NCBI GenBank assembly: GCA_002070265.1
Contig: MWCX01000088.1
Location: 34,389 to 98,388, forward strand
Reading direction: 5' to 3'
Origin: Bacteroidetes bacterium ADurb.Bin174
Lineage (GTDB): Bacteria; Bacteroidota; Bacteroidia; Bacteroidales; Paludibacteraceae
Length of the DNA: 64,000 bases
Position 1 is the stretch's first letter. Each line of letters begins with the position of its first letter. The notes under the pieces are model-generated. The model had not been told where the DNA came from, did no database searches, and was given only the letters and a program-made list of their open reading frames with translations. Positions 18,409 to 48,300 of the stretch are shown piece by piece. The position numbers were made by a program, and so were the translations under genes.

Positions 18409-18565
18409 GCTGTCTCAAAAGTAAATATTCAAGCAAAAAACCGCAAGGTGTCTTAGAAGCGTCCAAATGCAAGGCGCTGAGATTGAGGACGAAGGAGCAT
18501 ATTGAAGTATGCGACTAAGCCCGAATATCGAAAGCAACGCAGCAGTTGGGCACTTATGAGACACC
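18409..18565. mobile_element. MITE-like element with GTGTCTCA...TGAGACAC ends (outer left end plus inner element at 18447-18565)
   Basis: gctgtctcaaaagtaaatattcaa ... ggtgtcttagaag ... cagttgggcacttatgagacacc; homologous to 43599-43727; no transposase. Confidence 0.7.
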
Positions 18566-18582
18566 GCCATTGATTTACATCA

Positions 18583-19920
18583 TTAAAACAACAACCAGGA
18601 AGCCACAGAAAAATAAATAACCACTCCGCATATATCCGTAATAGATGTAATCAGTGGTGCACTTGCTGTAGCAGGGTCAATTTTCAATGTGGTAAAAATA
18701 AACGGCAGCAACATACCAATCAAACTACCGGCCACCACTATCAAAACCATAGTCAGCGACGCCACCCAAATAATTTCCGGAGACCGGATACTGGCAATAA
18801 GGGCTACCCCCACAGCCATGGTCACGCCCAATAAAAGCGACACCAACAGTTCCTTGCCTATTAATTTATACCAGTCGGAAAGTTCAACATCCCCGGTTGC
18901 CAACGAACGAATCATCAAAGTTGCGGATTGAGAACCGGCATTCCCGCCGCTACCGATTAACAATGGTAAGAAAAAGACCAAAGAGACATATGCAGTGATC
19001 GTTTCTCCAAAACTTGCAATGGCAGCACCCGAAAAAATATTGACAAAGACCAATGCCACCAACCATACAATACGATTCTTATACAGTTCAGTCACCCTCT
19101 CTTTCAAAGGATTGGTAATAGCCGACTGAAACGCCCCGAATTTGTGGAAGTCTTCGGTTGATTCTTCTTCCACCACGTCCATGATATCATCCACCGTCAC
19201 AATTCCCAGAAGTATGCCTTCGTCGTTGACAACGGGCAATGCTACCCTGTCGTAATCACTAAAAGCCTTAATGGCAGCCTCCTGATCATCCAGCACATTC
19301 AGCGCTACAAAGCGACTGTCCATCAAATCTTCAATTTTTTTAGTGGGATCAGCCAGAATAAGTTCTTTGATTCTGAGATCATCAAGCAACTTCCAGTCTT
19401 CACTTACAATATAAATTACATTCAGCGTTTCGGAATCTCTGCCGAATTTCCGGATGTGATTAAAGGTTTCTTCGATGGTAAAACTGGGTTTTACAGCCAC
19501 ATATTCCGGAGTCATCAAACGACCGATACTATCTTCCGGATATCCTAAAAGTTGTGTAGTGATGCTGCGTTCTTCCGGCAACAACAATTGCATGAGACGT
19601 TGTGTTACCGTACCGGGAAGTTCTTCGAAGAAAGCCGTTCTGTCATCAGGTTCAATGTCGTTCAATAAATTGGAAAGCGTTTGCACATTGTTAGCCAAAC
19701 CCTCAATGACTTGCTCCTGAATATCGTGCGACAAAAGTTGGAATACGTCCTTAGCCTGCATTCGACCGAGCAGTCTAAAGTAGATTATTTCTTCACCTTC
19801 CGAACAATCCTCAATCAATTCGGCTATCTGGATGGAATCATAAGCATTCAAGGCTCCTTTTAATGCCTTCCAATCCTTATTTTCAATAAGATGTTGAAAG
19901 TCGGTTTTGAATTCAACCAT
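18583..19920 (-). CDS. mgtE: Magnesium transporter MgtE
   Basis: MgtE_N, two CBS domains (GRLMTPEY, ALPVV) and a TM domain with GGNAGSQ and DPATASAP. Confidence 0.96.
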   Translation of the reverse strand: MVEFKTDFQHLIENKDWKALKGALNAYDSIQIAELIEDCSEGEEIIYFRLLGRMQAKDVFQLLSHDIQEQVIEGLANNVQTLSNLLNDIEPDDRTAFFEELPGTVTQRLMQLLLPEERSITTQLLGYPEDSIGRLMTPEYVAVKPSFTIEETFNHIRKFGRDSETLNVIYIVSEDWKLLDDLRIKELILADPTKKIEDLMDSRFVALNVLDDQEAAIKAFSDYDRVALPVVNDEGILLGIVTVDDIMDVVEEESTEDFHKFGAFQSAITNPLKERVTELYKNRIVWLVALVFVNIFSGAAIASFGETITAYVSLVFFLPLLIGSGGNAGSQSATLMIRSLATGDVELSDWYKLIGKELLVSLLLGVTMAVGVALIASIRSPEIIWVASLTMVLIVVAGSLIGMLLPFIFTTLKIDPATASAPLITSITDICGVVIYFSVASWLLF

Positions 19921-26973: not shown

Positions 26974-27522
26974 ATGAGCTTCGGATTGATACCGGCGAGA
27001 TATGCAAAAGCTTTGTTGGAGTTTGCTAACGAAAACTACAGCGCAGAGACGGTATATGAAGAAGCCAAAGTGATTGTGTTGGTTTTAAACAAAACAAAGG
27101 AAGTCAATCTAGCTCTGAGAAACCCGAAATTGCCCGTTGAGGACAAACGTGAGTTGATGCTGAAACTGACCGGAAAAGAACTGAGCGACACCCTAAAGCG
27201 TTTTATGGACTTGTTGTTGGAAAATAATCGTGAATCCTTACTTCGGCAGGTGATGTTGAAGTATATAGATTTTTACCGCGAAGACAACAAAATCAACCAC
27301 ACCAAATTGATAACGGCAGCTCCGATAGATGAAGAAACGGAACAACGCTTTATCAAATTGATTGAAGCTCAAGTAGGCGGAACGGTTGAATTGGAAAAAC
27401 ATATCCGTTCTGAAATATTAGGAGGTTTTCAAATTGAGGTGAATCATTTGCGATGGGATGCCACATTATCGGGACAATTGGAACAAATGAGAAAAGACAT
27501 GTTGAACGGAAACGAAAAATAA
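26974..27522 (+). CDS. atpH: ATP synthase delta subunit
   Basis: RYAKAL, ILGGF and WDATL motifs; operon position. Confidence 0.93.
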
Positions 27523-27526
27523 TAAT

Positions 27527-29113
27527 ATGGTTAACAAAATAAATGTAAGCGAAGTCTCGCAGGTATTGCGCAAGCAATTAGCCGGTATGGATGCCGACCC
27601 TAAGTTTGATGAAATCGGAACGGTATTGCAGGTCGGCGATGGTGTGATACGCTTGTACGGTTTACATAATGCGGAAGCAAGTGAACTGCTTCAGTTTGAA
27701 AACGGCATGCATGCCATCGTCATGAACCTGGAAGATGATAATGTGGGTGCCGTACTGTTGGGATCGTCTTCCGAGATTAAGGAAGGAGATACCGCCATGC
27801 GTACCAAAAGAGTTGCTTCCATCATGGTAGGCGATGAAATGTTGGGCAGGGTTATCAACCCCTTGGGTGAAGCCATAGACGGAAAAGGAAAGATAAGAGG
27901 CGAACTTTATGAAATGCCTTTTGAGCGCAAAGCGCCGGGCGTGATCTACAGGCAACCTGTGAATCAGCCTTTGCAGACCGGACTTACAGCCATTGATGCC
28001 ATGATCCCTATCGGACGCGGACAGCGGGAACTAATCATCGGTGACCGGCAAACCGGTAAAACCAGCATTGCTATAGACACCATCATCAATCAACGCCGCA
28101 ACTTCGAAGAAGGTGACCCCGTATATTGTATCTATGTGGCTATCGGGCAAAAAGGTTCAACCGTAGCTTCCATCGTAGAAACCCTGCGCAGACACAAGGC
28201 ATTGGAATACACCATCATTGTGGCAGCCAATGCCTCCGACCCCGCAGCCATGCAGTACTATGCTCCTTTTGCAGGTGCTGCCATAGGTGAATTTTTGCGT
28301 GATACCGGCAGACATGCTCTGGTGGTTTACGATGACCTGTCGAAACAAGCCGTTGCATACCGCGAAGTTTCACTGATATTGAGACGACCATCCGGAAGAG
28401 AAGCCTATCCGGGAGATATTTTCTACCTGCACTCGCGCCTCCTGGAACGGGCAGCCAAAATCATCAATCAGCAGGAAGTAGCTGAACAAATGAATGATGT
28501 ACCCGAAAGTCTGAAGGGAAAGATTAAAGGCGGCGGCTCACTGACTGCCCTCCCCATCATTGAAACACAAGCCGGCGATATTTCGGCTTATATTCCTACC
28601 AATGTGATTTCTATTACAGACGGTCAGATTTTCTTGGATGTAGATGCCTTTATCAGCGGCAACCGACCGGCTATTGACGTGGGAATTTCCGTATCGCGCG
28701 TCGGCGGCAATGCGCAAATTAAAACCATGAAACGAATTGCCGGCACCCTGAAAATAGATCAGGCTCAGTACAGGGAATTGGAAGCTTTCTCCAAGTTCGG
28801 CAGTGATTTGGATGCTGTCACTGCCATGATCATAGACAAAGGTCGAAAGAACGAACGCCTGTTGGTGCAACCCGTTCACTCCCCCCTCGAGGTTGAAAAG
28901 CAAATCGCCATCTTGTATTGCGGTACCAAAGGCTTGTTGAAAGATCTTGCTTTGGAAAAAGTAGATGCCTTCAAAAAAGAATTTTTAGCCAGATTGGAAT
29001 CTCTCCACAGGGAAAATGTATTAAATCCCATTCGGAAGGGTGTTTTTAATGATGAAATCATTACTATCATTGAGCAAGTTGCAGCGGGTGTAATCCTAAG
29101 TCTTTCCGAATAA
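27527..29113 (+). CDS. atpA: ATP synthase alpha subunit
   Basis: [20 protein letters not shown] and [11 protein letters not shown] motifs. Confidence 0.98.
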
Positions 29114-38264: not shown

Positions 38265-38876
38265 ATGGAAAAAAGAAGATATATACACTTTGTTGCCCTG
38301 ACTTTGGCTGTTGCAGCAATCATGAGTTCATGCGCATACGACTCATACGAACTTAGCAAAACCGTATTCATACCTGATTATGAAAACCCGGGATTGCCCA
38401 TTTATTCGGAATGGGGATACAATACCTTTGGTATGTACGTCGACCGCTCAACTTTTGTATCAACTGACCATATATTACCAAGCAAGATCATCGTGAACCC
38501 CGATACTTTCAATATCAGATTAAGTGGTATTTACCAAAGTGTCTCTACAACCTTGCTCATTTCAGTGGTCGGTTATGCCCCAAGAGATTATCCTGATTTA
38601 ATCAGTTTGAATGATTCAACCATCAATTTAAGAGACGACAATTGCATCATTACCCTGAGAAAATTCTCCGAAGAAGCCGTTAAGCTTCCTATTATCGAAG
38701 GCTACATCAATTTTAAAAAGGCTCAAAATTTATACGTAGATAAAGAGTTGACCAAAACGATCCTTTCAGGCACCATCCAGTTCAAAACATTTTTCGATGG
38801 CGAACCTGTGGCAATCACGAATGGCCGGTTTGATCTGGGGATAGGATATGAGAATTTTTATTATTATACAAGATAA
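38265..38876 (+). CDS. Hypothetical lipoprotein
   Basis: Lipobox MSSC; beta-rich; ends GRFDLG, as seen in Bacteroidota lipoproteins. Confidence 0.65.
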   Translation: MEKRRYIHFVALTLAVAAIMSSCAYDSYELSKTVFIPDYENPGLPIYSEWGYNTFGMYVDRSTFVSTDHILPSKIIVNPDTFNIRLSGIYQSVSTTLLISVVGYAPRDYPDLISLNDSTINLRDDNCIITLRKFSEEAVKLPIIEGYINFKKAQNLYVDKELTKTILSGTIQFKTFFDGEPVAITNGRFDLGIGYENFYYYTR

Positions 38877-39059
38877 AATCCCCCAGGAACAATAGCACCC
38901 CCTACACTCATTTCGAGTTTACACTCTCAAAGTTTAAACAAATAAGGATATTCGTTTAAATTCAAAAACTGACCCGCTACTTTTTTCAATGAAGTGCAAG
39001 ATACTGCAGGAAGTGAAGACAGCAGCAGTAGAAAAATGGTTTGTTTGTTTGAATTCACG

Positions 39060-39125
39060 ATTTTTACTATGTCTTTGAAGAACAAGCCTTCTTTCGTATT
39101 CTGCCGGTAAGATTTCTATTTGCAT
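39060..39125 (-). pseudogene. Possible 5' remnant of an integron-type tyrosine recombinase
   Basis: MQIEILPAEYERRLVLQRHSKN resembles the L.R.YS.NT start of the IntI/phage-integrase N-terminal SAM-like domain; divergent from the att-like site; the similarity is lost after about 22 codons. Confidence 0.35.
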
Positions 39126-39240
39126 TTTTTATGCTTATGTGAATTTAATCATTTGTAAACGCAAATGATGTTTAATCAATTTAAATTGTTGTATTTAGTT
39201 GATTTATAGGTGCATATAGAATTACTGCTGAAATGATATG

Positions 39241-39307
39241 CGAATGTTATAAATTTTATATTTACGAATGTTTTGTATATTTGTTTCGTAAATTAAACGT
39301 TAGCGGG
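39241..39307 (+). promoter_or_regulatory. attI-like/promoter element ending at the cassette core GTTAGCGGG
   Basis: CGAATGTT direct repeat, TTTACGAA/TTCGTAAA inverted repeat around TATATTTG (-7 box), then GTT at 39299; 56/61 identical to 44463-44523. Confidence 0.6.
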
Positions 39308-39370
39308 TATGCTATGAAAGACAGTGAAGAAAATAATAATCAAACTAAGAATAGACATGTTTAATCGATT

Positions 39371-40654
39371 ATGACAGAAATAGAACTCTTTGCAAAACAT
39401 TATTTTGGGTTAGGATTAAATGTTACTTGCATTAGCAATCGAATCAATGAACACAACTTCTATTGCAGAAATATCCTCAAAACTCCAAACCATAAATGGA
39501 AACATCTTTTTACTCAAAGACAACTACAAACAGAATTTCAAAAATACGAGTGGGACTCAGCGACAGGTGTAGGATGTGTTACAGGTTTTCAAGATTTGCG
39601 TGTTATTGATATTGACGGTTGCAATGACTACAACTTTTTAGATGAAGTTTTAGCACTATTAGAATTACCTACGAACTACGAGTGGGTTACTTTATCGGGC
39701 AGTAAAAATGGATTTCACATTTTTATTAGTAGCAATAAATTTTCCTACCTTAACGAAAGTCAAGTTGTAACAACATTCCCTCCTAAGGAAGAATATAAAC
39801 ACAAACTTGAAAAGGTTGAGATACTTTGGAATACCCATGTTGTTTTACCACCATCTATTCACAATTCAGGTAATTCATACAGCTTCATAAATTGCAAGTA
39901 TCCTAAATCACTTCCAAAAGTCGTTAAGCATCGAAAAGTTTCAAGTTTTATTGACAAATATCTGCAAGCTGAAAAAAAAATAATTGGACGAGGTTATGGA
40001 GAAGTTCTATTTGAGTTCATTCCACCCAATATCCCAAGTAACCTTGATGAAGATGATGTTTCACGATTAGAAAACAAAACCATCATTTGTGTTTTGGATA
40101 TTGAAACTGATGGCTTACCAAGAAAAAATTTAGTTTCAATTGAATATCCAAACGTGGTTCAAGTTGCTTGGTTGCTAATGGACACAGACGGTAATATTTT
40201 CAAAAAAGAATCAGACCTAATCAACTATCCCAACATTACTTATACAGAGGCATTTGCCGTGAATCAGATTGACATTAACCTTGTCAAAAGAATAGGTAAA
40301 CAACCCGACGAAGCATATAGGAAACTAATCAGTGATATAAAAATTTCTGATTTCATTGTTGCTCATAATATTGATTTTGATTTACCAATATTACGGAGTC
40401 AATTAAAAAAATATCAAGTGCAAGACCCTTTCAGTAGCAAGAAAACAATTTGCACAATGAAGGAAACAATAGATTATTGTAATATTCCAAACTTTGATGG
40501 ACGAAACAAGTTCCCAAAATTGACTGAACTCTACAAAAAACTATTTGACTACGATATTGAGCAAAAACATAATGCGGAATCAGATGCTTTTCTTACGGCA
40601 AAATGTTTTAAAGAGTTATTGACTAAAGGAATTATTGATTTAGACAATTACTAA
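39371..40654 (+). CDS. Fusion of a bifunctional primase-polymerase (AEP, Prim-Pol) and a DEDDh 3'-5' exonuclease
   Basis: AEP motifs LRVID80ID82, SGSKNGFH116 and VVLPPSIH.SG..Y; exonuclease motifs LD243IE245TDG, AHNIDFD337 and H400NAESD405. Confidence 0.85.
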   Translation: MTEIELFAKHYFGLGLNVTCISNRINEHNFYCRNILKTPNHKWKHLFTQRQLQTEFQKYEWDSATGVGCVTGFQDLRVIDIDGCNDYNFLDEVLALLELPTNYEWVTLSGSKNGFHIFISSNKFSYLNESQVVTTFPPKEEYKHKLEKVEILWNTHVVLPPSIHNSGNSYSFINCKYPKSLPKVVKHRKVSSFIDKYLQAEKKIIGRGYGEVLFEFIPPNIPSNLDEDDVSRLENKTIICVLDIETDGLPRKNLVSIEYPNVVQVAWLLMDTDGNIFKKESDLINYPNITYTEAFAVNQIDINLVKRIGKQPDEAYRKLISDIKISDFIVAHNIDFDLPILRSQLKKYQVQDPFSSKKTICTMKETIDYCNIPNFDGRNKFPKLTELYKKLFDYDIEQKHNAESDAFLTAKCFKELLTKGIIDLDNY

Positions 40655-40685
40655 TATTCAGATAAAAAAATAATTAATTCAACCA

Positions 40686-42206
40686 ATGACATTAGTTGAA
40701 AAACATTTTAAAAAGACAGCAAAACTTGTTAGAGCTATTGACAAGAAAGTTATTGCCGAATGGTTATTGACTGAAGGTTATTTTCCTGAACAGTATGTGT
40801 TGCCACCGTCCTTTTCGGTGACAGACTTTAAACTCAAAACCAAACCTTACAATAAAAACCTCAATGACCCTGCAAGAAGAAAGCTTGTAACTATTTCATA
40901 TCCTAAATCACTTCTGACTTCAAGAGTTTTTGGCATCCAACATCCATTTAACTATCATGACATTGTGTTTCATTTGATAGAAGATTGGAAAATTGTTGTT
41001 GACCACATTTTTCATAATGACCTTAAAATATTCTCATATAGTTTTCCTATACCGGTAAATGCAAAAGCAATTGGGAAGCTAGGCAATCTTCGTTCAGGAA
41101 GAATGATTTATGAATGGGTTGAAATGGCGGAAAAAGATATGGTAGCAGAAGCACATAAATATAATTTTATCATTCGTGCTGACATTACCAATTTTTACAA
41201 TTCAGTTTATACACATAGCATTGGTTGGGCTTTACATGGCAGAGAAAAAGCATTTGCCGACAAGGAGTTTAAACTAACAGGGAATAAAGTTGATAAATTA
41301 ATTCAATATGCTAATGACGCAAGGACCAATGGCATTCCAGTTGGTTCAGCACTCAGCGACCTTATTGCTGAAATAGTTCTTACGAGTATAGACAGAAAAG
41401 TATCTTCAAAACTTAAAACAATTAACTTTGTTGGCAGTCGCTTTAAAGATGATTACAGAATTTTATGCAACAGTGAAGATGAAGCTAAAAAAATTCTCAA
41501 AGTGCTTTCAGACGAATTGGTTGAATTTAATTTGCTAATAAACGAACACAAGACAAAGGTTCTTACACTTCCAGACGGACTTTACAGACAACATGATAGA
41601 GAATATCACAATTATTCTCTGAAAGACAAGGAAGCTATACCTTTTAAAACTTTTGAATTAACTCTTTTAAAAGCACTTGACATTCATAAAGCTTACCCAG
41701 GGACAAGTATTCTTGAAAAGTTTTTCTCTGAATTATACGACAACGACAGCAAGCTCAAAATTCAATTTTCAGCTGACAATAACGCAAGGAATAAACAAAT
41801 TTTGAAAGCAATGAGTCTGCTAATGTTGGTTAAACGAGAATCAGAAAAAACTCTGTGTCATGTATTAGCAATCTGTGAAGAGATTTATATAAAATATCGG
41901 TCTCCGAAATTGAAAGAAAAGTTGAAATATTTAATTGAATCTGAGATTGTTAAAGCATCAAACAAAAAATCAGCATTTGAACTAGTTTGGTTAGTATTTT
42001 TTTCTCGTTATCTATCTCTTGGACTAACGACCTTTTCAAAAATGATTGATAAGGAACTAATGGAAACAGCATTTTTAAAATCAGTAATTTCAAGTGAGCA
42101 AAAGTTCTTTAATGACTCAAAGCAAAAACTATTTTTGAAACCCAAAGATTGTAAAACAAAAACTTTATCAAAACGACTTGCAGTATTCGACAGAAATAAG
42201 GAATAG
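40686..42206 (+). CDS. Abi/UG-type (defence-associated) reverse transcriptase with a helical C-terminal extension
   Basis: GYFP..LPP.F, YPK...R, AD166ITNFYNSVYTHSIGWA, GIPVGSALSDLIAE, RFKD255D256Y and L.IN..KT; about 210-aa helical tail. Confidence 0.9.
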   Translation: MTLVEKHFKKTAKLVRAIDKKVIAEWLLTEGYFPEQYVLPPSFSVTDFKLKTKPYNKNLNDPARRKLVTISYPKSLLTSRVFGIQHPFNYHDIVFHLIEDWKIVVDHIFHNDLKIFSYSFPIPVNAKAIGKLGNLRSGRMIYEWVEMAEKDMVAEAHKYNFIIRADITNFYNSVYTHSIGWALHGREKAFADKEFKLTGNKVDKLIQYANDARTNGIPVGSALSDLIAEIVLTSIDRKVSSKLKTINFVGSRFKDDYRILCNSEDEAKKILKVLSDELVEFNLLINEHKTKVLTLPDGLYRQHDREYHNYSLKDKEAIPFKTFELTLLKALDIHKAYPGTSILEKFFSELYDNDSKLKIQFSADNNARNKQILKAMSLLMLVKRESEKTLCHVLAICEEIYIKYRSPKLKEKLKYLIESEIVKASNKKSAFELVWLVFFSRYLSLGLTTFSKMIDKELMETAFLKSVISSEQKFFNDSKQKLFLKPKDCKTKTLSKRLAVFDRNKE

Positions 42207-42219
42207 ACAAGAAGCACGA

Positions 42220-42353
42220 CCCGCTAACAGGCGTTTGGCTCAATGGCGGGTGACGTGGTTAATTGAACATACTTACTCGCATCAACTTTTGTGGTGTATT
42301 GACAGTTTTGCACTCCGAAATCCGCCACTGCGCCAAGCGCCAAAACGGTAAAT
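42220..42353 (+). mobile_element. attC-like recombination site closing the Prim-Pol/RT cassette
   Basis: CCCGCTAAC lies 13 nt after the RT stop and is the exact reverse complement of 39299-39307; 20-nt arms 42230-42249 and 42322-42341 have 3 mismatches; the end GGTAAAT is one change from GTTRRRY. Confidence 0.7.
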
Positions 42354-42429
42354 GCCATGCGGTCATTTTAACAAAAAGAAAAATTTGTATTTTTACTAAA
42401 ACCATCAAATAAGAACAAACAAATTTTTT

Positions 42430-42617
42430 TATGCCGCACGGTATTTACCCCAAACCATTGGGTGCAAGTATAGCAAAACCTACCAACGAAAGCGATTGGT
42501 AGCCATAAGAGTAATAGCAGTACGACAACCCTTGACAACGCAAAATTCACGAAATCAGAACCCTTGCAGAGTAACTGGATAAAGAGCTTGCAAAAGTCGA
42601 GAAGAAATATGCATTAA
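42430..42617 (+). pseudogene. Decayed small ORF (possible second cassette gene)
   Basis: Protein-like fragments in different frames (HWVQV*QNLP, RLVAIRVIA, QRKIHEIRTLAE*LDKELAKVEKKYA) separated by stops and frameshifts. Confidence 0.3.
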
Positions 42618-42619
42618 TC

Positions 42620-42660
42620 CATCATCAAGTGGGAAAAACCCACTTGATGATGTTGTTTTT
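42620..42660 (+). terminator. Intrinsic terminator
   Basis: Perfect 14-bp stem catcatcaagtggg/cccacttgatgatg followed by a T-rich tail. Confidence 0.85.
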
Positions 42661-42725
42661 TAGATTAAAATGTTATTTTAATTCTTTTTTTATGCAATTT
42701 TGCGGAAAATTAGAAGTAAATAAAA

Positions 42726-42911
42726 ATGAAATTTTGGCAATTAAGAAATCAATTTTACGACTTGATATGTTTCAATATAAATCAAGTTTATGCGTGGCAA
42801 CCTGGTTTTGATAAAAACAATCTCACTCGTTGGGTAAAACAAAATTTGCTCGTAAAATTGCGTAATTCGTGGTATAGTTTCCCGGATTATGTAAAGATGT
42901 CTGTCTCATAA
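42726..42911 (+). pseudogene. Truncated AbiEi-like (type IV TA antitoxin) N-terminal winged-helix gene, cut by a MITE
   Basis: CFNINQVYAWQPGFDKNNLTRWVKQNLLVKLRNSWY resembles the AbiEi N-terminal HTH; the stop TAA is supplied by the inserted GTCTCATAA end. Confidence 0.55.
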
Positions 42912-43006
42912 GTGCCCAACTGCTGTGCTTCGACTTCGCTCAGCAACCACGTTACTTTCGATGGTTGCTGAGCCTGTTGAAGCACGGGCTCAGTCACATA
43001 CTTCAA
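42902..43006. mobile_element. MITE-like copy carrying a nested REP-like palindrome
   Basis: tgtctcataagtgcccaactgctg...cgggctcagtcacatacttcaa aligns with the reverse complement of about 18503-18563; extra arms at 42926-42949 and 42963-42984. Confidence 0.75.
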
Positions 43007-43165
43007 AGAAATACCACATCTTTACTTTCAAACTAAGGTTTCATTGGATTCATTTCAGCATGTGACGCACGGCATGACCCTCCACCATCATATCCATACC
43101 ACCGCTGTTACCGCTACTTGAGCTTGGTTGACCCTCGCCGTACAGAATTCTACGGCACATATTCT

Positions 43166-43465
43166 TTACATCAATAACACGCCGCTGATTTTTGAGACGA
43201 ACAGCACCAAATAGATCAACAGACCCGTTATAATGATTATGGTGAAAATCGCGAACACTAGCCCCAGGCAGCCCCATTTACGTTTCCCGTCGGGGAGTTT
43301 GTCAAACAAAAGCGTTATCAATAACCCTATGAATGGAGTAGTCAATATTGAAAACAGATAGGACCATCCGAAACCTATCTTCCTACGCGCTCCCACCAGG
43401 CCTACCAACACTGAAATCAGCGAAAAAGATATAACACCAAATATCAAAAGAGTAGCAGTTATCAT
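43166..43465 (-). CDS. Small hypothetical membrane protein
   Basis: 99 aa with three hydrophobic segments; G.RRKIGFGWS motif; ATG start. Confidence 0.65.
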   Translation of the reverse strand: MITATLLIFGVISFSLISVLVGLVGARRKIGFGWSYLFSILTTPFIGLLITLLFDKLPDGKRKWGCLGLVFAIFTIIIITGLLIYLVLFVSKISGVLLM

Positions 43466-43598
43466 GAGTACAATGTTTTATCAACCGCGTAAAAATACAT
43501 ATTTTTTCAAAAAATACTGTCTTTACTGCGTTATAAAAGAATATACTTTTAAAACAGACAGGGCAATCTCAACACAAATATTCAACTAAAAATAATAA

Positions 43599-43727
43599 GG
43601 TGTCTCAAAAGTGTCCATATGTGAGACTCTAAGATTGAGGACTGTAGAGGAAGACTTGCGCGTCTGCCCTCGGTGACTGAGCTCAAATATCGAAAGTAAC
43701 GAAGCAGTTGGGCGCTTATGAGACACC
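43599..43727. mobile_element. MITE-like element with 13-bp terminal inverted repeats
   Basis: GGTGTCTCAAAAG ... CTTATGAGACACC (1 mismatch); interior homologous to 18447-18565. Confidence 0.8.
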
Positions 43728-43842
43728 GACCAATACCGACAGAAATGCAACAAAAACATGAAAAAGCAATGACAAGTTTCGGAAAAAAGATACTTATCTT
43801 GGAAGAAACATTAACTTTGCGCCTGGATTAAATATCAAAATA

Positions 43843-44289
43843 ATGAAAAAACAACTCAAAATAGCCTTGGTAGCACACGATGCACGCAAGGCAGACATGG
43901 TAGAATGGGCAGTTTTTAACTCGGATATGCTTTCGCAGCATAAACTAATTTGTACGGGAACTACCGGCGGGCTGATACAGAAAGCCTTTGAAAATGAAGG
44001 AATAGAAGTAGAGGTTGAACGTAAAAACTCCGGTCCGATGGGTGGCGATGCCGAAATTGCTGCAATGGTTGTGAACAAACAAATAGATTTTTGCGTGTTT
44101 TTGATAGACGACCTAAGCGCAAATCCGCACGAAGCTGACATACAGATGCTTTTACGTCAGTGCCGTATTCACAATATCCCAATAGCCTGCAACCGTTATA
44201 GTGCAGATTTGATGATTACCAGTCCGCTGTGGGACAATGATGAGTATGTGCCGAAAGACCCGCAATATATTCCTTTTCATCGTGAATAA
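43843..44289 (+). CDS. mgsA: Methylglyoxal synthase
   Basis: IALVAHD..K, TGTTG, SGPMGGDAEI, PHEADI and NIPIACN motifs. Confidence 0.96.
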   Translation: MKKQLKIALVAHDARKADMVEWAVFNSDMLSQHKLICTGTTGGLIQKAFENEGIEVEVERKNSGPMGGDAEIAAMVVNKQIDFCVFLIDDLSANPHEADIQMLLRQCRIHNIPIACNRYSADLMITSPLWDNDEYVPKDPQYIPFHRE

Positions 44290-44341
44290 ATATTGCGGTT
44301 TCCGACAGATTATATTACATTTGCGGTCTCAAAATATCCAT

Positions 44342-44412
44342 TGACTTATGGTGTAATGGTAGCACTACAGATTCTGGATCTGTCTGTCTAGGTTCGAATC
44401 CTAGTAAGTCAG
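44342..44412 (+). tRNA. tRNA-Gln (anticodon CTG)
   Basis: Acceptor stem TGACTTA/TAAGTCA, anticodon arm ACAGA-TTCTGGA-TCTGT, T-arm CTAGG-TTCGAAT-CCTAG; upstream TACATTTG at 44316. Confidence 0.95.
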
Positions 44413-44425
44413 CAAACTCTCCTTC

Positions 44426-44447
44426 CAATTTCCCGTTCCGGGAAATT
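44426..44447 (+). terminator. Hairpin after tRNA-Gln
   Basis: aatttcccg-ttc-cgggaaatt. Confidence 0.6.
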
Positions 44448-44462
44448 AAATGAATTGATACA

Positions 44463-44523
44463 CGAATGTTTTAAGTTTTATATTTACGAATGTTTTGTAT
44501 ATTTGTTCCGTAAATTAGATGTT
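44463..44523 (+). promoter_or_regulatory. Second copy of the attI-like/promoter element
   Basis: 56/61 identical to 39241-39301, ending at GTT. Confidence 0.6.
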
Positions 44524-44596
44524 TTGTATGTGCAACAGCAAAAAACAAAAGACGCACAACTCTATTTATCAAAAAAACATTTCAAACAAAAATTAT

Positions 44597-45253
44597 ATGA
44601 AAGCCTTTTTTCTAATTCCTCTATTATTGTTTTTTCCAATCATTTCAATATTCGGTCAAAGCAATCCAAACCTTTTTTTGGGTTTTGAAGTTATTGAACT
44701 TCAACAGAACTCATTTAAAAATTTAGGAAAAAACAACTATACCTTCTTTATTGGCACATCATTTCCTATAAATGAAAAAACTCTATGGGGAGGACGTATT
44801 ACAAGTATGAATGTGGAACTGAGCGAAAAACATCTGCAAGAGCCATCGCCTGTTTATAAGGGTGATTTTAAAGGAGTTACAGGAAATCTGAATGTTCAAC
44901 GAATTTATTTGGATTACTATTACAGATGGAATCTCAACTTTTTGTGGATTGAACCAATTTTTTCAGTCGGTATTGGATACAACAACTGGAAGTTTTACAA
45001 CAAAATTGTTGATGAATCCTATGATCTTAAGACAGCTAGTTTAGGTGTTTCAGGTAAAGTCAGGTTTACATTTTTTAAATATCCTTTCATTGAAATACCA
45101 TCTTTGGATGTGTTCGGCTTCATATATAAAAACAGAAACCCGGAAGAAATGCTTGGAGACGCACATATTGATTTTTGGAAAAGAGGAGGTGTTTTTAACT
45201 GGATCTTTATTGGTTGCAACATCCCTCTCAATAAGCTCGGAAAGCAACCCTAA
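44597..45253 (+). CDS. Hypothetical outer-membrane beta-barrel protein
   Basis: Signal peptide MKAFFLIPLLLFF..., alternating aromatic strands; the stop TAA lies inside CCCTAAC. Confidence 0.65.
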   Translation: MKAFFLIPLLLFFPIISIFGQSNPNLFLGFEVIELQQNSFKNLGKNNYTFFIGTSFPINEKTLWGGRITSMNVELSEKHLQEPSPVYKGDFKGVTGNLNVQRIYLDYYYRWNLNFLWIEPIFSVGIGYNNWKFYNKIVDESYDLKTASLGVSGKVRFTFFKYPFIEIPSLDVFGFIYKNRNPEEMLGDAHIDFWKRGGVFNWIFIGCNIPLNKLGKQP

Positions 45254-45299
45254 CAGTAGGGTTTGCAATATAGCCAACCGTACCAAACCTGCGTTGTAA
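45248..45299 (+). repeat. Short attC-like imperfect palindrome
   Basis: AAC-A-GTAG-G-GTTTG ... CAAAC-CTGC-GTT pairs with two unpaired bases. Confidence 0.4.
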
Positions 45300-45383
45300 T
45301 CACTTCAAACAAAAACATAACAGAAATCTACATAGAAAAAATACGCTTTACCCATTTTTGAAAAGAGTATCTTCTATAATGAT

Positions 45384-48300
45384 TCACGAACTACACGCAA
45401 CAACCCGCACCTTTCTAAGCTTTACATAACATAAGTAGGCTTGCGTGTGGTAGCCCATCTTATGCAGCAGCCGCGCATAATTTTGCACTTGTCTGGTGTG
45501 GGATGGAAGTTCCTTCTCGCCGAATTTATAATCTATAACTGTGGCTTGATTATCTTCTAAAATGATGCGGTCGGGACGATAATGCTGACCTTCGGAAGTA
45601 AGGATGGTGGTTTCGTTCAATACCCGAACACCGGGTTTAAACCATGCTTTGGTTTCGGGTAGTTGCCAAAACTCTTCAACATCTTTGGCTATTTGGATGG
45701 CTTCCGTGCCGGTAATTCTTCCTGCCCGTATAAACTCTTCTATAAGGGCGTGATGGTCGTCCGGTGTTTGTATATTGTAGAAAATCTCATGCATCAGATT
45801 GCCATAATCTAACGGACTTTCGGTGATGTCAATTTCCTCACGGTTCAACATACTGATGCTGTGCTTGAGTTTCAGGCGACCAGAAATACTGCAAATGGGA
45901 TAGGCTTCAGATACCGATGCAGATTCTTGGAGATGTTTGGCAGATTGTTCTCTATTCAGGGGTTGCCCTATTTGACAAATATCTTCATCAAAATTAGAAG
46001 TCAGGATTCTTTTATTGCTTGCTGTCAGACATTGATGGATCAAACTTGAAATGCTATCAATGGTTATGCTGCCATCCTTTTTTTCTTTGGGAAGCGGACA
46101 AATTGCCATCAGTTCGTGCTTCGGACGGGTGAAAGCAACATAAGCAAGATTCAGGTTATCCATAAAGGTAAGCATCATTTCTTCATAATAGTCGGCTGCA
46201 AACAATGATTCCCCCAATGCTTTTTTGTATTCTACCGGTATCAGAGGTAATGCATTGTAGGGTGGAACCTGAGTTTCGCACCACAGGATATTGCGCATGC
46301 GCGAGTCTAATGTCCAGTCGCAAAAAGGCATCACCACCGCATCAAACGACAAACCTTTAGCTTTGTGTATGGTCATGATGCGGAAAGCATTTTCTTTTTC
46401 CGGCGTTGCTATATTTTGTTTGTGACCAAATTGATCCCACCATTGCAGAAAAGCATTTAAATCGGATGTTTTGCCTGTTGAAAACTGATACACTACATCC
46501 TGAAAGGCTTGCAGAAAAATAATTTCTTTATCGTTCCACGAAGCCAAATCAAACAACGCAATGATATTTTCAACCATCTCAAACAAAGTGTAATGTTTAT
46601 ATGATCTCAATTGTTCATTTTCTTCCCGGGTAAACATAGAAGAAATGACGGTCTCGCAATTTGTGTTACCTGAGTCTATACGATTGGCAACAGTTTCTCG
46701 CACAGCTTCAGAGGCAGATCGTCCAAATTTACCTTTTGCATACTCAAACTGCATGATCATTTTTTGCACAACATCTTCAGGATGAATGAAAAGTCGCAAT
46801 AGGCTCAATAAAAACTTGACAGATGCTGCCGACTCTAAGGTCAGCCCTTCCGACCCCATGATGTCATAACTAAAACCGGACTTAGCCTCTTCTGTTGTTT
46901 TATGATGCAGGAGTTTTCGGATAACCATTGAAGCTTCCTCATTTGTCCTGACCAAAATAGTAACTTCAGCAGGCTTATAACCTCTCGACTGAAAATCTTC
47001 AAGTAAACCGGGTAGCATATTCAAACTTTGTTCTTTCCAGGATTCTCCTTCAGGATCAACCCTTTCTATAAATTGAAATCTCACATGACCTTCACCTGCA
47101 TGTTTGCGAAAATTTTGTTCGGTTTGTTGATAGGCATCTGTAATTTTACTTTGCAAACCGGTCAGTTGCGGAAGCGATGAAAGAACGGGATCGAGGTTTT
47201 CATTCAGCTTTTGTTGCAGCCATTGAGCCGCCTCAGGGAATAAAGCGTTATTGAAAAGGACGATGTTTTTATCACTGCGCCAGTTAGTATCCAAATTTTC
47301 TTCTTGTAAATTTTCATGCTTGAAATCCTCATACACTTGACTTCCTAATAAATTCCAATCCGAATTGCGCCAGCGGTAAATACTTTGTTTGACATCTCCC
47401 ACCACCAGGTTATAATGATTCATTGATAAACTGTTCTTCAAAAGCGGTAGGAAATTCTCCCACTGCAAAACAGAAGTATCCTGAAATTCATCTATCATGA
47501 AATGATGGAACAACAATCCGCTTTTCTCATAAATAAAGGGTGTGTCGCTACGGTCTATAATCTGATTCAACAAAAGGTTGGAGTCAGATATCAGCATTAA
47601 TTTTTGATCAACGGTCAGCTTTCTGATTTGCATGGTCAAATCGGACAAAATTCCCAGGGTATTCAAATGCTTACGGATAAAAACAGCCGTATTATATGAC
47701 AATATGTGGGTGTCCACATGCGCAATCAATTCCTGCATTTTGGCTTGCAACCCGCTATTATAAGCATTTTCAATAGTGGTAATGATGGAAGGTTCTGTTT
47801 TTTTTGCATAACATTTCTCAATCTCCTCAGCCATTCCTCTAAAAGTTTTGTTCAGGTCGAAATCACCATCTTTTATCCTTTCCAATTTCTTCATGGCAGA
47901 CCGGGAAGCTCCACTGAACTGATCGGTACTCAGTTCGTGTTGATGGATAATCGCCAATGCCTCCTCAGCTATCCTCTCAGAAGTTTTAGTAAAGGTTTCT
48001 ATTATCTTCTTCAACCCAGTCTGAAATACTTTAAGGAATTGTTTGTCGTGTAATTTTTTATTGGTTTCGGTAGCTTTATGCTGATATTTTTCTTTGAAGA
48101 TTTCATACCCCAAACTTAGGATATTTCCGCGCATATCCCAGTTCTCTGCATTTTCAATGCGTTCTTCAGCAAATTGAACCAACCACTCCAAGAGTTGCGC
48201 ATTTTCTTTCTCAGATAAATCGAAAAACAAATTATCCACAGCTTGTTCAAGTACACCCTCCGTATCCAACTCTAAGGTATATCCTCCATACACTCCTATC

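Follow-up and report, generated by a model that had tools for sequence, protein, structure and literature searches.

A repeated element ending at GTT in a Bacteroidales genome is probably the attI-type site of an integron-like gene-capture platform

Introduction

The stretch of DNA considered here (the window) is 64,000 nucleotides long and lies on contig C88 of a Paludibacter-like 2.9 Mb assembly (G000) made up of 93 contigs. Within it the same short element occurs twice, each time ending at a GTT in front of an accessory gene. What is such an element for? It might be a promoter that has been copied from gene to gene, the end of a mobile element, or the docking site at which a recombinase inserts incoming genes.

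The last of these possibilities brings integrons to mind. In the attI1 site of class 1 integrons, which consists of DR2, DR1, L and R boxes, (G/A)ATGTT direct repeats lie upstream of an inverted pair and crossover takes place in the terminal GTT. The specific insert of the classical integron integrase, IntI, is thought to be essential for its handling of folded attC sites. A survey of complete genomes with IntegronFinder 2.0 found in Bacteroidetes only In0 elements and one Salinibacter integron, with almost no complete integrons (PMC9024848), and a literature search found no open paper joining integron, attC and Bacteroidales.

The element is probably the attI-type site of an integron-like gene-capture platform of Bacteroidales, with a likely outward promoter for the captured cassettes. 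The first-pass annotation had proposed just such a combination, and the proposal has gained weight from comparison between genomes. This demonstrates linkage to a recombinase (a divergent tyrosine recombinase gene elsewhere, a remnant of one beside copy 1), a sharp boundary at GTT, variable content (the DNA after GTT differs between related genomes whose flanks are conserved), structured repeats (the cassettes that make up this DNA each end in a structured attC-like site) and complementarity at the boundary (the bases with which a cassette opens, right after GTT, complement the beginning of its own attC-like site).

The element and its family

Positions 39241-39301 and 44463-44523 of the window are identical at 56 of 61 nucleotides. 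This 61-bp repeat, reported in the first-pass annotation, is real: recomputation gave the same figure and shuffled sequences contained none. The match is in fact longer, with 65 of 73 nucleotides identical between 39229-39301 and 44451-44523. Outside these 73 bp, identity falls to 7/40 upstream and 10/40 downstream. A 25-mer from the core occurs exactly twice in the window, with 0 occurrences expected from 100 dinucleotide-preserving shuffles. The repeat goes beyond chance.

Copy 1 (39229..39301, plus strand), delimited by family alignment and genome search, has direct repeats CGAATGTT at 39241-48 and 39265-72. The box TTTACGAA (39261-68) and its inverted partner TTCGTAAA (39285-92) flank a -7-type box, TATATTTG, at 39276-83. 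The terminal GTT occupies 39299-301, and crossover would fall between its G and TT (written G/TT below). Copy 2 (44451..44523, plus strand) is a solo module, with no recombinase remnant and no downstream attC-like site. Its direct repeats CGAATGTT lie at 44463-70 and 44487-94, its boxes TTTACGAA and TCCGTAAA at 44483-90 and 44507-14, its -7-type box TATATTTG at 44498-505 and its terminal GTT at 44521-23. TATATTTG is thus enclosed by the TTTACGAA/TTCGTAAA pair, and 24 bp upstream there is one more direct repeat. The direct repeat, inverted repeat, -7 box and terminal GTT described earlier were thus all found in place in both copies. The loss of similarity after GTT, also described earlier, holds among all aligned copies.

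A search of the whole genome with BLAST and a sequence-only model (R1) found nine copies. Four are on C21, two on C88, and C16, C38 and C70 have a single copy each. Within-genome E-values reach 1e-21 to 1e-32. All nine are co-oriented with the next gene, and these genes are mutually unrelated. They include a PrimPol-exonuclease gene with a reverse transcriptase, a 218-aa secreted protein, a split C10 peptidase, a membrane protein with an 817-aa protein, a DUF5677 protein and others. The four copies on C21 (20867-29963, minus strand) lie within 9 kb and two of them are degenerate tandem duplicates 720 bp apart. That region also has attC-like sites at 26999-27138 and 28324-28463, making it a compound array with repeated attI-like units.

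In the order as a whole the element is patchy: of 151 genomes sampled, 6 have it. Some carry 12-15 copies, of which several lie at contig ends. Twenty copies from several Bacteroidales families give the consensus ..ACGAATGTTATAAnTTTTATATTTACGAATGTTGTATATTTGTTTCGTAAATTAnAyGTT, in which there is little or no variation at TTGTA.ATT, at the CG of TTCGTAAA and at the final GTT. Tracing the 61-mer through this genome and others, as the first-pass annotation had suggested, turned up both linkage to a recombinase and variable downstream genes. The annotation had allowed for homologous elements that always precede the same gene and are never linked to a recombinase; instead, the downstream genes are unrelated and a recombinase gene runs divergently from the element elsewhere.

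A divergent tyrosine recombinase

The genome has nine tyrosine-recombinase genes and none is on the element-bearing contigs C88, C16, C38, C70 and C21. Together with the lack of enrichment of the boxes, this initially favoured a propagated promoter. The objection to an attI was overturned because remnants (by tblastn) and intact genes in other genomes emerged.

The best-scoring copies in G019 and G165 are divergent from a recombinase open frame of about 300 aa, the gene product being 280 aa. Among public loci, an intact divergent recombinase gene adjoins the element in L062/L038, L063/L051, L052, L072 and L074-76. It is truncated in L030, and 25-44 codons are left in L047 and L043. The array of L072 holds a second recombinase N-terminal fragment. 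In the window, 22 codons of a recombinase N-terminus (MQIEILPAEYERRLVLQRHSKN; 39060..39125, minus strand) are divergent from copy 1. They were found by tblastn of the G165 recombinase against the whole genome (residues 1-22, 77% identity, E 4e-4). In the window 176 bp separate the recombinase ATG from the GTT of the element; at intact platforms the figure is about 182-193 bp. A homologous remnant with a stop codon lies beside the C16 copy of the element.

A tblastn search of the assembly found no intact recombinase of the platform family, only fragments on C88, C16, C91 and C54. Contig C91 opens with the last 20 codons of a platform-type recombinase gene (C91:3-62, 85% identity), and C54:3590-3805 is a fragment spanning residues 197-266 (52% identity). 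An intact copy may lie within an assembly gap.

The 103-bp spacer between the remnant and the copy 1 element contains an oppositely oriented box, TTTACAAATG. Upstream of the remnant, 39139..39169 (minus strand) comprises a TTTAC(A/G)AATG box in this opposite orientation and then a TAnnTT-type box. The C16 counterpart of the reverse box, on the recombinase strand, is TTTACGAATGATTATATTCG. Weak matches to the element model in reverse orientation adjoin intact recombinase genes in L074 and L076. The boxes at 39139-39169 are a candidate promoter/operator of the recombinase gene, and the combination of box and TAnnTT motif before that gene would fit autoregulation.

What kind of recombinase is it? 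It passes NCBIfam NF040815 (site-specific tyrosine recombinase/integron integrase) with 238-240 bits, above the cut-off. Against the integron integrase model TIGR02249 it reaches 219-233 bits, above its XerD/XerC model scores and below the cut-off of 265. The shortfall arises because the TIGR02249 match is in two stretches, skipping model positions ~177-252, the IntI-specific region. The best alignment among solved structures is with archaeal XerA. VchIntIA (2A3V) aligns in two pieces, and the 58 aa that IntI has between them are matched by 15 aa here. The recombinase thus lacks the IntI-specific additional domain, about 43 aa of insert being missing, and so the recombination chemistry may differ. 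The recombinase has more than 5000 relatives at E 1e-30 or better. Some of them, 86-94% identical, are from Petrimonas, Lentimicrobiaceae and Bacteroides heparinolyticus, a distribution that points to horizontal spread.

Cassettes and attC-like sites

The variable DNA behind the element consists of genes with a repeat after them; this repeat has ..AAC at one end and ..CGTT at the other, about 120 nt apart. The repeat is about 137 nt and uniform in length. An alignment of 19 copies yields an 18-pair consensus stem with compensatory changes at 16 of the pairs. A covariance model built for this family (R2) finds 27-29 copies in the genome. Many are on small contigs (C54, C74, C91, C44, C49, C16 and others), which suggests that cassette arrays have been fragmented by assembly. 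Sites of this family lie downstream of the element on C16, C70 and C21 and in L063 (five sites), L066, L068-L071, L072 and L074. Copy 2 and four or five others have no matching site downstream; these are C38, C21a, C21b and, less clearly, C21c/d, which are only weakly matched. Across the order, 301 genomes of 209 genera were sampled; the model has matches in 207 of these genomes and in 158 of the genera.

An Rfam search over 38500-45500 found no known RNA family besides tRNA. The genome is also rich in intergenic repeats of MITE/REP type, with dozens of copies across contigs (43561-43728, 42902-42997 and 18436-18595 in the window). These are unrelated to the attC-like family.

One clue to the nature of the repeat is what happens at the cassette boundaries. 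Whether GTT belongs to the element or to the repeat before the cassette, the 7 nt that follow it complement the 7 nt just ahead of AAC in the next repeat. A complementary run of at least 6 nt beyond GTT/AAC is present in 16 of 32 cognate pairs, where some failures stem from a crude choice of GTT, against 28 of 2538 pairs compared all against all. At copy 1, GTTAGCGGGT (39299-39308) is the exact complement of ACCCGCTAAC (42219-42228), located 13 nt past the stop codon of the reverse transcriptase. The C16 and C70 copies show the same GTT/AAC signature. The features that define attC sites (an imperfect palindrome, R''/R' boxes and a cassette start complementary to its own R'') are thus all found in this family.

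The complementarity usually takes the form of 7 matches, a recurrent A/G mismatch at position 8 and then 2 further matches. In the folded site, position 8 might form a conserved mispair or else be an extrahelical base. Some 8-12 nt past GTT, many cassettes (on C54, C68 and C70, in L038 and L047, and at 39302-39330 of the window) have a loose A-rich leader resembling CATTnTAAAAAGAC. This stretch could belong to the recombination site or act in translation as a leader.

Two orphan platforms in the window

Copy 1 is part of a short array: recombinase remnant, 103-bp spacer, element, one cassette and attC-like site. The cassette cargo (39302..42217, plus strand) has a GC content of 32.3%, against 0.40-0.43 in neighbouring core genes. 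It encodes two proteins on the plus strand. The first is a 427-aa fusion of PrimPol and a DEDDh exonuclease (39371-40654; Pfam Prim-Pol and RNase_T; PADLOC DEDDh, 77.5 bits). The second is a 506-aa defence reverse transcriptase of the UG14 class (40686-42206; Pfam RVT_1; PADLOC RT_UG14, 699 bits, full length). The attC-like site that closes the cassette (42218..42355, plus strand; R2 108.4 bits, E 2.9e-23) is the only R2 match in the window. Its 3' end reads ACGGT, not the CGTT of the family, and so it may be degenerate or inactive. On C6 there is a copy, 93% identical, with a regular CCGTT end.

In L074, a locus like that of B. heparinolyticus, the first cassette encodes an Abi-P2 reverse transcriptase with a trypsin-TPR partner. 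With the UG14 cassette of the window, this indicates that the arrays stock reverse-transcriptase defence systems.

Beyond the attC-like site of copy 1 come an AbiEi-like gene fragment, MITE-like repeats, mgsA and tRNA-Gln. The fragment is a 61-aa open reading frame at 42726-42911, which we take to resemble the N-terminus of an AbiEi-type antitoxin. It is interrupted where a MITE-like repeat starts.

Copy 2 is a barer affair. It starts 38 nt after tRNA-Gln(CTG) (44342..44413, plus strand; ARAGORN; Rfam tRNA 63.9 bits), and on C16 a platform likewise lies just downstream of a tRNA-Gln. The gene that follows, 73 nt downstream of copy 2, encodes a 218-aa signal-peptide protein (44597..45253, plus strand; 33.5% GC) with no family match. 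Downstream of copy 2 there is no R2 match and no complementary R'', and the 130-nt gap after the gene is not attC-like.

Where did this copy come from? On C16 the order is mgsA', tRNA-Gln', recombinase remnant, element, C10-peptidase cassette, attC-like site and a further cassette, and the paralogous stretch is 86-89% identical to the window. Where the tRNA flank meets copy 2, C16 and the window share the motif TGAAnTGATA. Loss of about 215 bp between two such short repeats would turn a C16-like arrangement (tRNA-Gln, remnant, element) into copy 2, which probably arose by this deletion. Earlier talk of a duplicated capture platform suits these facts, given the third, paralogous platform on C16, yet copy 2 itself is without a cassette.

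The duplication extends to neighbouring genes. Both mgsA and tRNA-Gln are present twice (43774-44460 of the window and C16:40473-41138, with 86% nucleotide and 96% protein identity), whereas 32 of the 34 genus genomes with an mgsA match have one copy. The second copy of mgsA and tRNA-Gln may have arrived together with a platform. A tRNA-linked island with attL and attR was considered and excluded. The window copies flank the core genes mgsA and tRNA-Gln, and therefore they are not attL/attR. The closest relative, G004, has neither platform at the corresponding places. Homology with it ends at the end of a 203-aa gene and about 22 nt after tRNA-Gln, so that no empty site can be read from G004 synteny.

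A probable promoter inside the site

The element probably carries an outward cassette promoter as well. A TAnnTTTG box, oriented into the cassettes, is nearly invariant across the 20 aligned copies, and the -7 box TATATTTG matches it exactly. The -33 region reads TTTT/ATTT, not TTTG. The primary-sigma consensus of Bacteroidetes, reportedly described by Bayley and co-workers in 2000, is TTTG at -33 and TAnnTTTG at -7, spaced 19-21 bp apart. TATATTTG would be an active -7 box and, lying between the boxes, would be repressed when the recombinase binds.

Promoter, transposon end or docking site?

What if the element were a promoter and nothing else? It could be a mobile promoter, or the promoter-operator of a small regulon, where a repressor binds TTTACGAA/TTCGTAAA and recombination has no part. 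The -7 box and the constant co-orientation with the next gene are what such an element should have. The copies on C38, C21a and C21b and copy 2 of the window, all of which precede genes without an attC-like site, would be at home in it, and similar boxes before the recombinase gene are as expected for an autoregulated operator. However, TTTACGAA and related 8-mers occur at the expected genome-wide frequency, with no enrichment, and the arrangement of box, -7 and box is restricted to copies of the element. It is on these grounds that a regulon operator was rejected. A mobile promoter also leaves unexplained why complementarity to the cassette's own attC-like site should start exactly at the GTT of the element, why the content after GTT varies at a chromosomally fixed platform (see below), and why a tyrosine recombinase is physically linked to the element across families. 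This reading is unlikely.

The other possibility is that the element is the terminal 75-120 bp or so of a small transposable or integrative element that has a recombinase gene and an outward promoter, the downstream genes being chance flanks. The sharp GTT boundary with the recombinase gene just inside it, the many copies at contig ends and the existence of solo ends with gene remnants all agree with this. So does the horizontal spread implied by 86-94% identical recombinases in different families. A direct comparison of two loci is telling in this respect. L063 (in G019) and L052 (in another Paludibacter) are 92.6% identical through hisB, the recombinase gene and the element, up to about 12 nt past GTT. 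Unrelated DNA then follows, 8.1 kb in L063 and 1.3 kb in L052, and synteny returns after ...CGTT, at ATGTGCCATATAAAC. Both the hisB side and the far flank are therefore conserved, and only the DNA after GTT differs. Such a pattern speaks against a transposon terminus and in favour of a docking site, one that adjoins a recombinase gene and would receive insertions at a conserved G/TT as an attI does. In addition, the variable DNA is modular and bounded by attC-like sites, and the far side of the recombinase gene showed no second, inverted terminus. A transposon terminus was rejected for the conserved flanks on both sides, and this reading is very unlikely.

Finally, that the likeness of the window copies is chance or low-complexity sequence in an AT-rich region is already refuted by the 0 matches in 100 dinucleotide-preserving shuffles, the BLAST E-values of 1e-21 to 1e-32 and the conservation of the element in other families.

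How the platform might work

An attI-type site can be fitted into a simple scheme. At an intact platform the 280-aa recombinase gene reads away from the element, which ends at G/TT about 180 bp from the start codon. Cassettes adjoin it at G/TT, each starting with TT and about 7 nt complementary to the start of its own attC-like site (7 nt plus AAC), and each having as its attC-like site an imperfect hairpin of about 137 nt that ends in ...CGTT. Judging from the comparisons above, circular cassettes opened at G/TT and inserted at the element would explain this signature of circular permutation. The recombinase is predicted to cut at G/TT. The TTTACGAA and CGAATGTT boxes would bind it, by analogy with DR2, DR1, L and R of attI1, and if they do, bound recombinase would occupy the promoter. 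Both platforms in the window are orphans, copy 1 with 22 recombinase codons and one cassette, and copy 2 bare.

Taken to its full extent, the scheme would be integron-type capture by a Xer-like recombinase that does without the IntI domain, acting on folded attC-like sites of about 137 nt with crossover at G/TT. The promoter between the binding boxes would be gated by their occupancy, and copying of the attI together with the 5' end of the recombinase gene round the genome would have produced nine platforms. This idea is offered tentatively; as a complete account it is possible rather than probable.

Relation to known systems

How does this compare with what is known? Like class 1 integrons and the chromosomal integron of Vibrio cholerae, the platform has a recombinase gene divergent from a boxed site of about 70 bp that ends at G/TT. 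A putative promoter reads into the array, and the cassettes are co-oriented, each ending in an AAC...GTT imperfect palindrome and starting with bases complementary to the R'' of its own attC. The uniform length of the attC-like sites, about 120-137 nt, is reminiscent of Vibrio repeats. However, the 280-aa recombinase lacks about 43 aa of the IntI-specific insert and scores under the TIGR02249 cut-off, and conservation of the attC-like sites extends from structure to sequence. Where a classical integron has a single attI, this genome has nine attI-like copies, some with recombinase-gene remnants. The promoter box, unlike that of classical integrons, lies inside the attI-like site, between putative binding boxes. 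With attI1 the element shares two (G/A)ATGTT direct repeats upstream of an inverted pair and a terminal GTT, here the presumed crossover point. There is no sequence homology between the two, and in the element the inverted pair encloses a promoter box, with a spacing of 13-17 bp. As for cargo, classical integrons also include defence systems, as here (bioRxiv 10.1101/2024.07.02.601686).

Another close counterpart is rAID-1 (recombinase-associated acquired interbacterial defence), a type of gene cluster of Bacteroidales in which an XerD-like recombinase lies beside a low-GC gene array (Ross et al., 2019; bioRxiv 10.1101/471110). In the description of these clusters, the repetitive intergenic sequences are called 'reminiscent of integrons', and rAID-1 is reported in 226 of 423 genomes, over half (bioRxiv 10.1101/471110). 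The criteria set out there are a recombinase at least 44% identical to BF9343_RS08045, at least two co-directional downstream genes and an array GC of at most 41% (bioRxiv 10.1101/471110). The likeness is considerable. Both systems belong to Bacteroidales and combine a tyrosine recombinase with a low-GC array, the attC-like element occurring here in 207 of 301 genomes. The copy 1 cassette, at 32.3% GC, falls within the GC limit and has attC-like intergenic repeats. In L065, a related recombinase (47% identical) is found with co-directional attC-like sites. From the spread of the attC-like sites and the L065 recombinase, the repeat family is very probably the one seen in rAID-1, as far as description rather than sequence can be compared.

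The platform differs from rAID-1, again by description, in three ways: its orientation, its cargo and the attI-like element with a likely promoter, which is present in several copies. rAID-1 has a 5' recombinase and co-directional genes, whereas the recombinase is divergent in L062, L063, L072, L074 and the window remnant. The cargo of rAID-1 consists of T6SS immunity genes; here the cassettes encode a reverse-transcriptase defence pair, a C10 peptidase and the like. The consulted portion of the rAID-1 text describes no attI-like promoter site, G/TT boundary or folded-site structure (bioRxiv 10.1101/471110).

Implications

In complete-genome surveys integrons have been called almost absent from Bacteroidetes, yet an attC-like element is present in about two thirds of the sampled genomes of this order. 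The points of interest are a recombinase without the IntI insert, a likely promoter embedded in the site and the sheer size of the attC-like family. Clusters of the rAID-1 type in gut Bacteroidales gain a concrete and testable candidate architecture for their sites: an attI with a likely promoter, a G/TT boundary and a folded attC-like site. Their arrays stock anti-phage systems (UG14 and Abi-P2 reverse transcriptases) and not T6SS immunity genes alone. If the system is active, then either some recombinases can do without the IntI insert or evolution has found a parallel solution.
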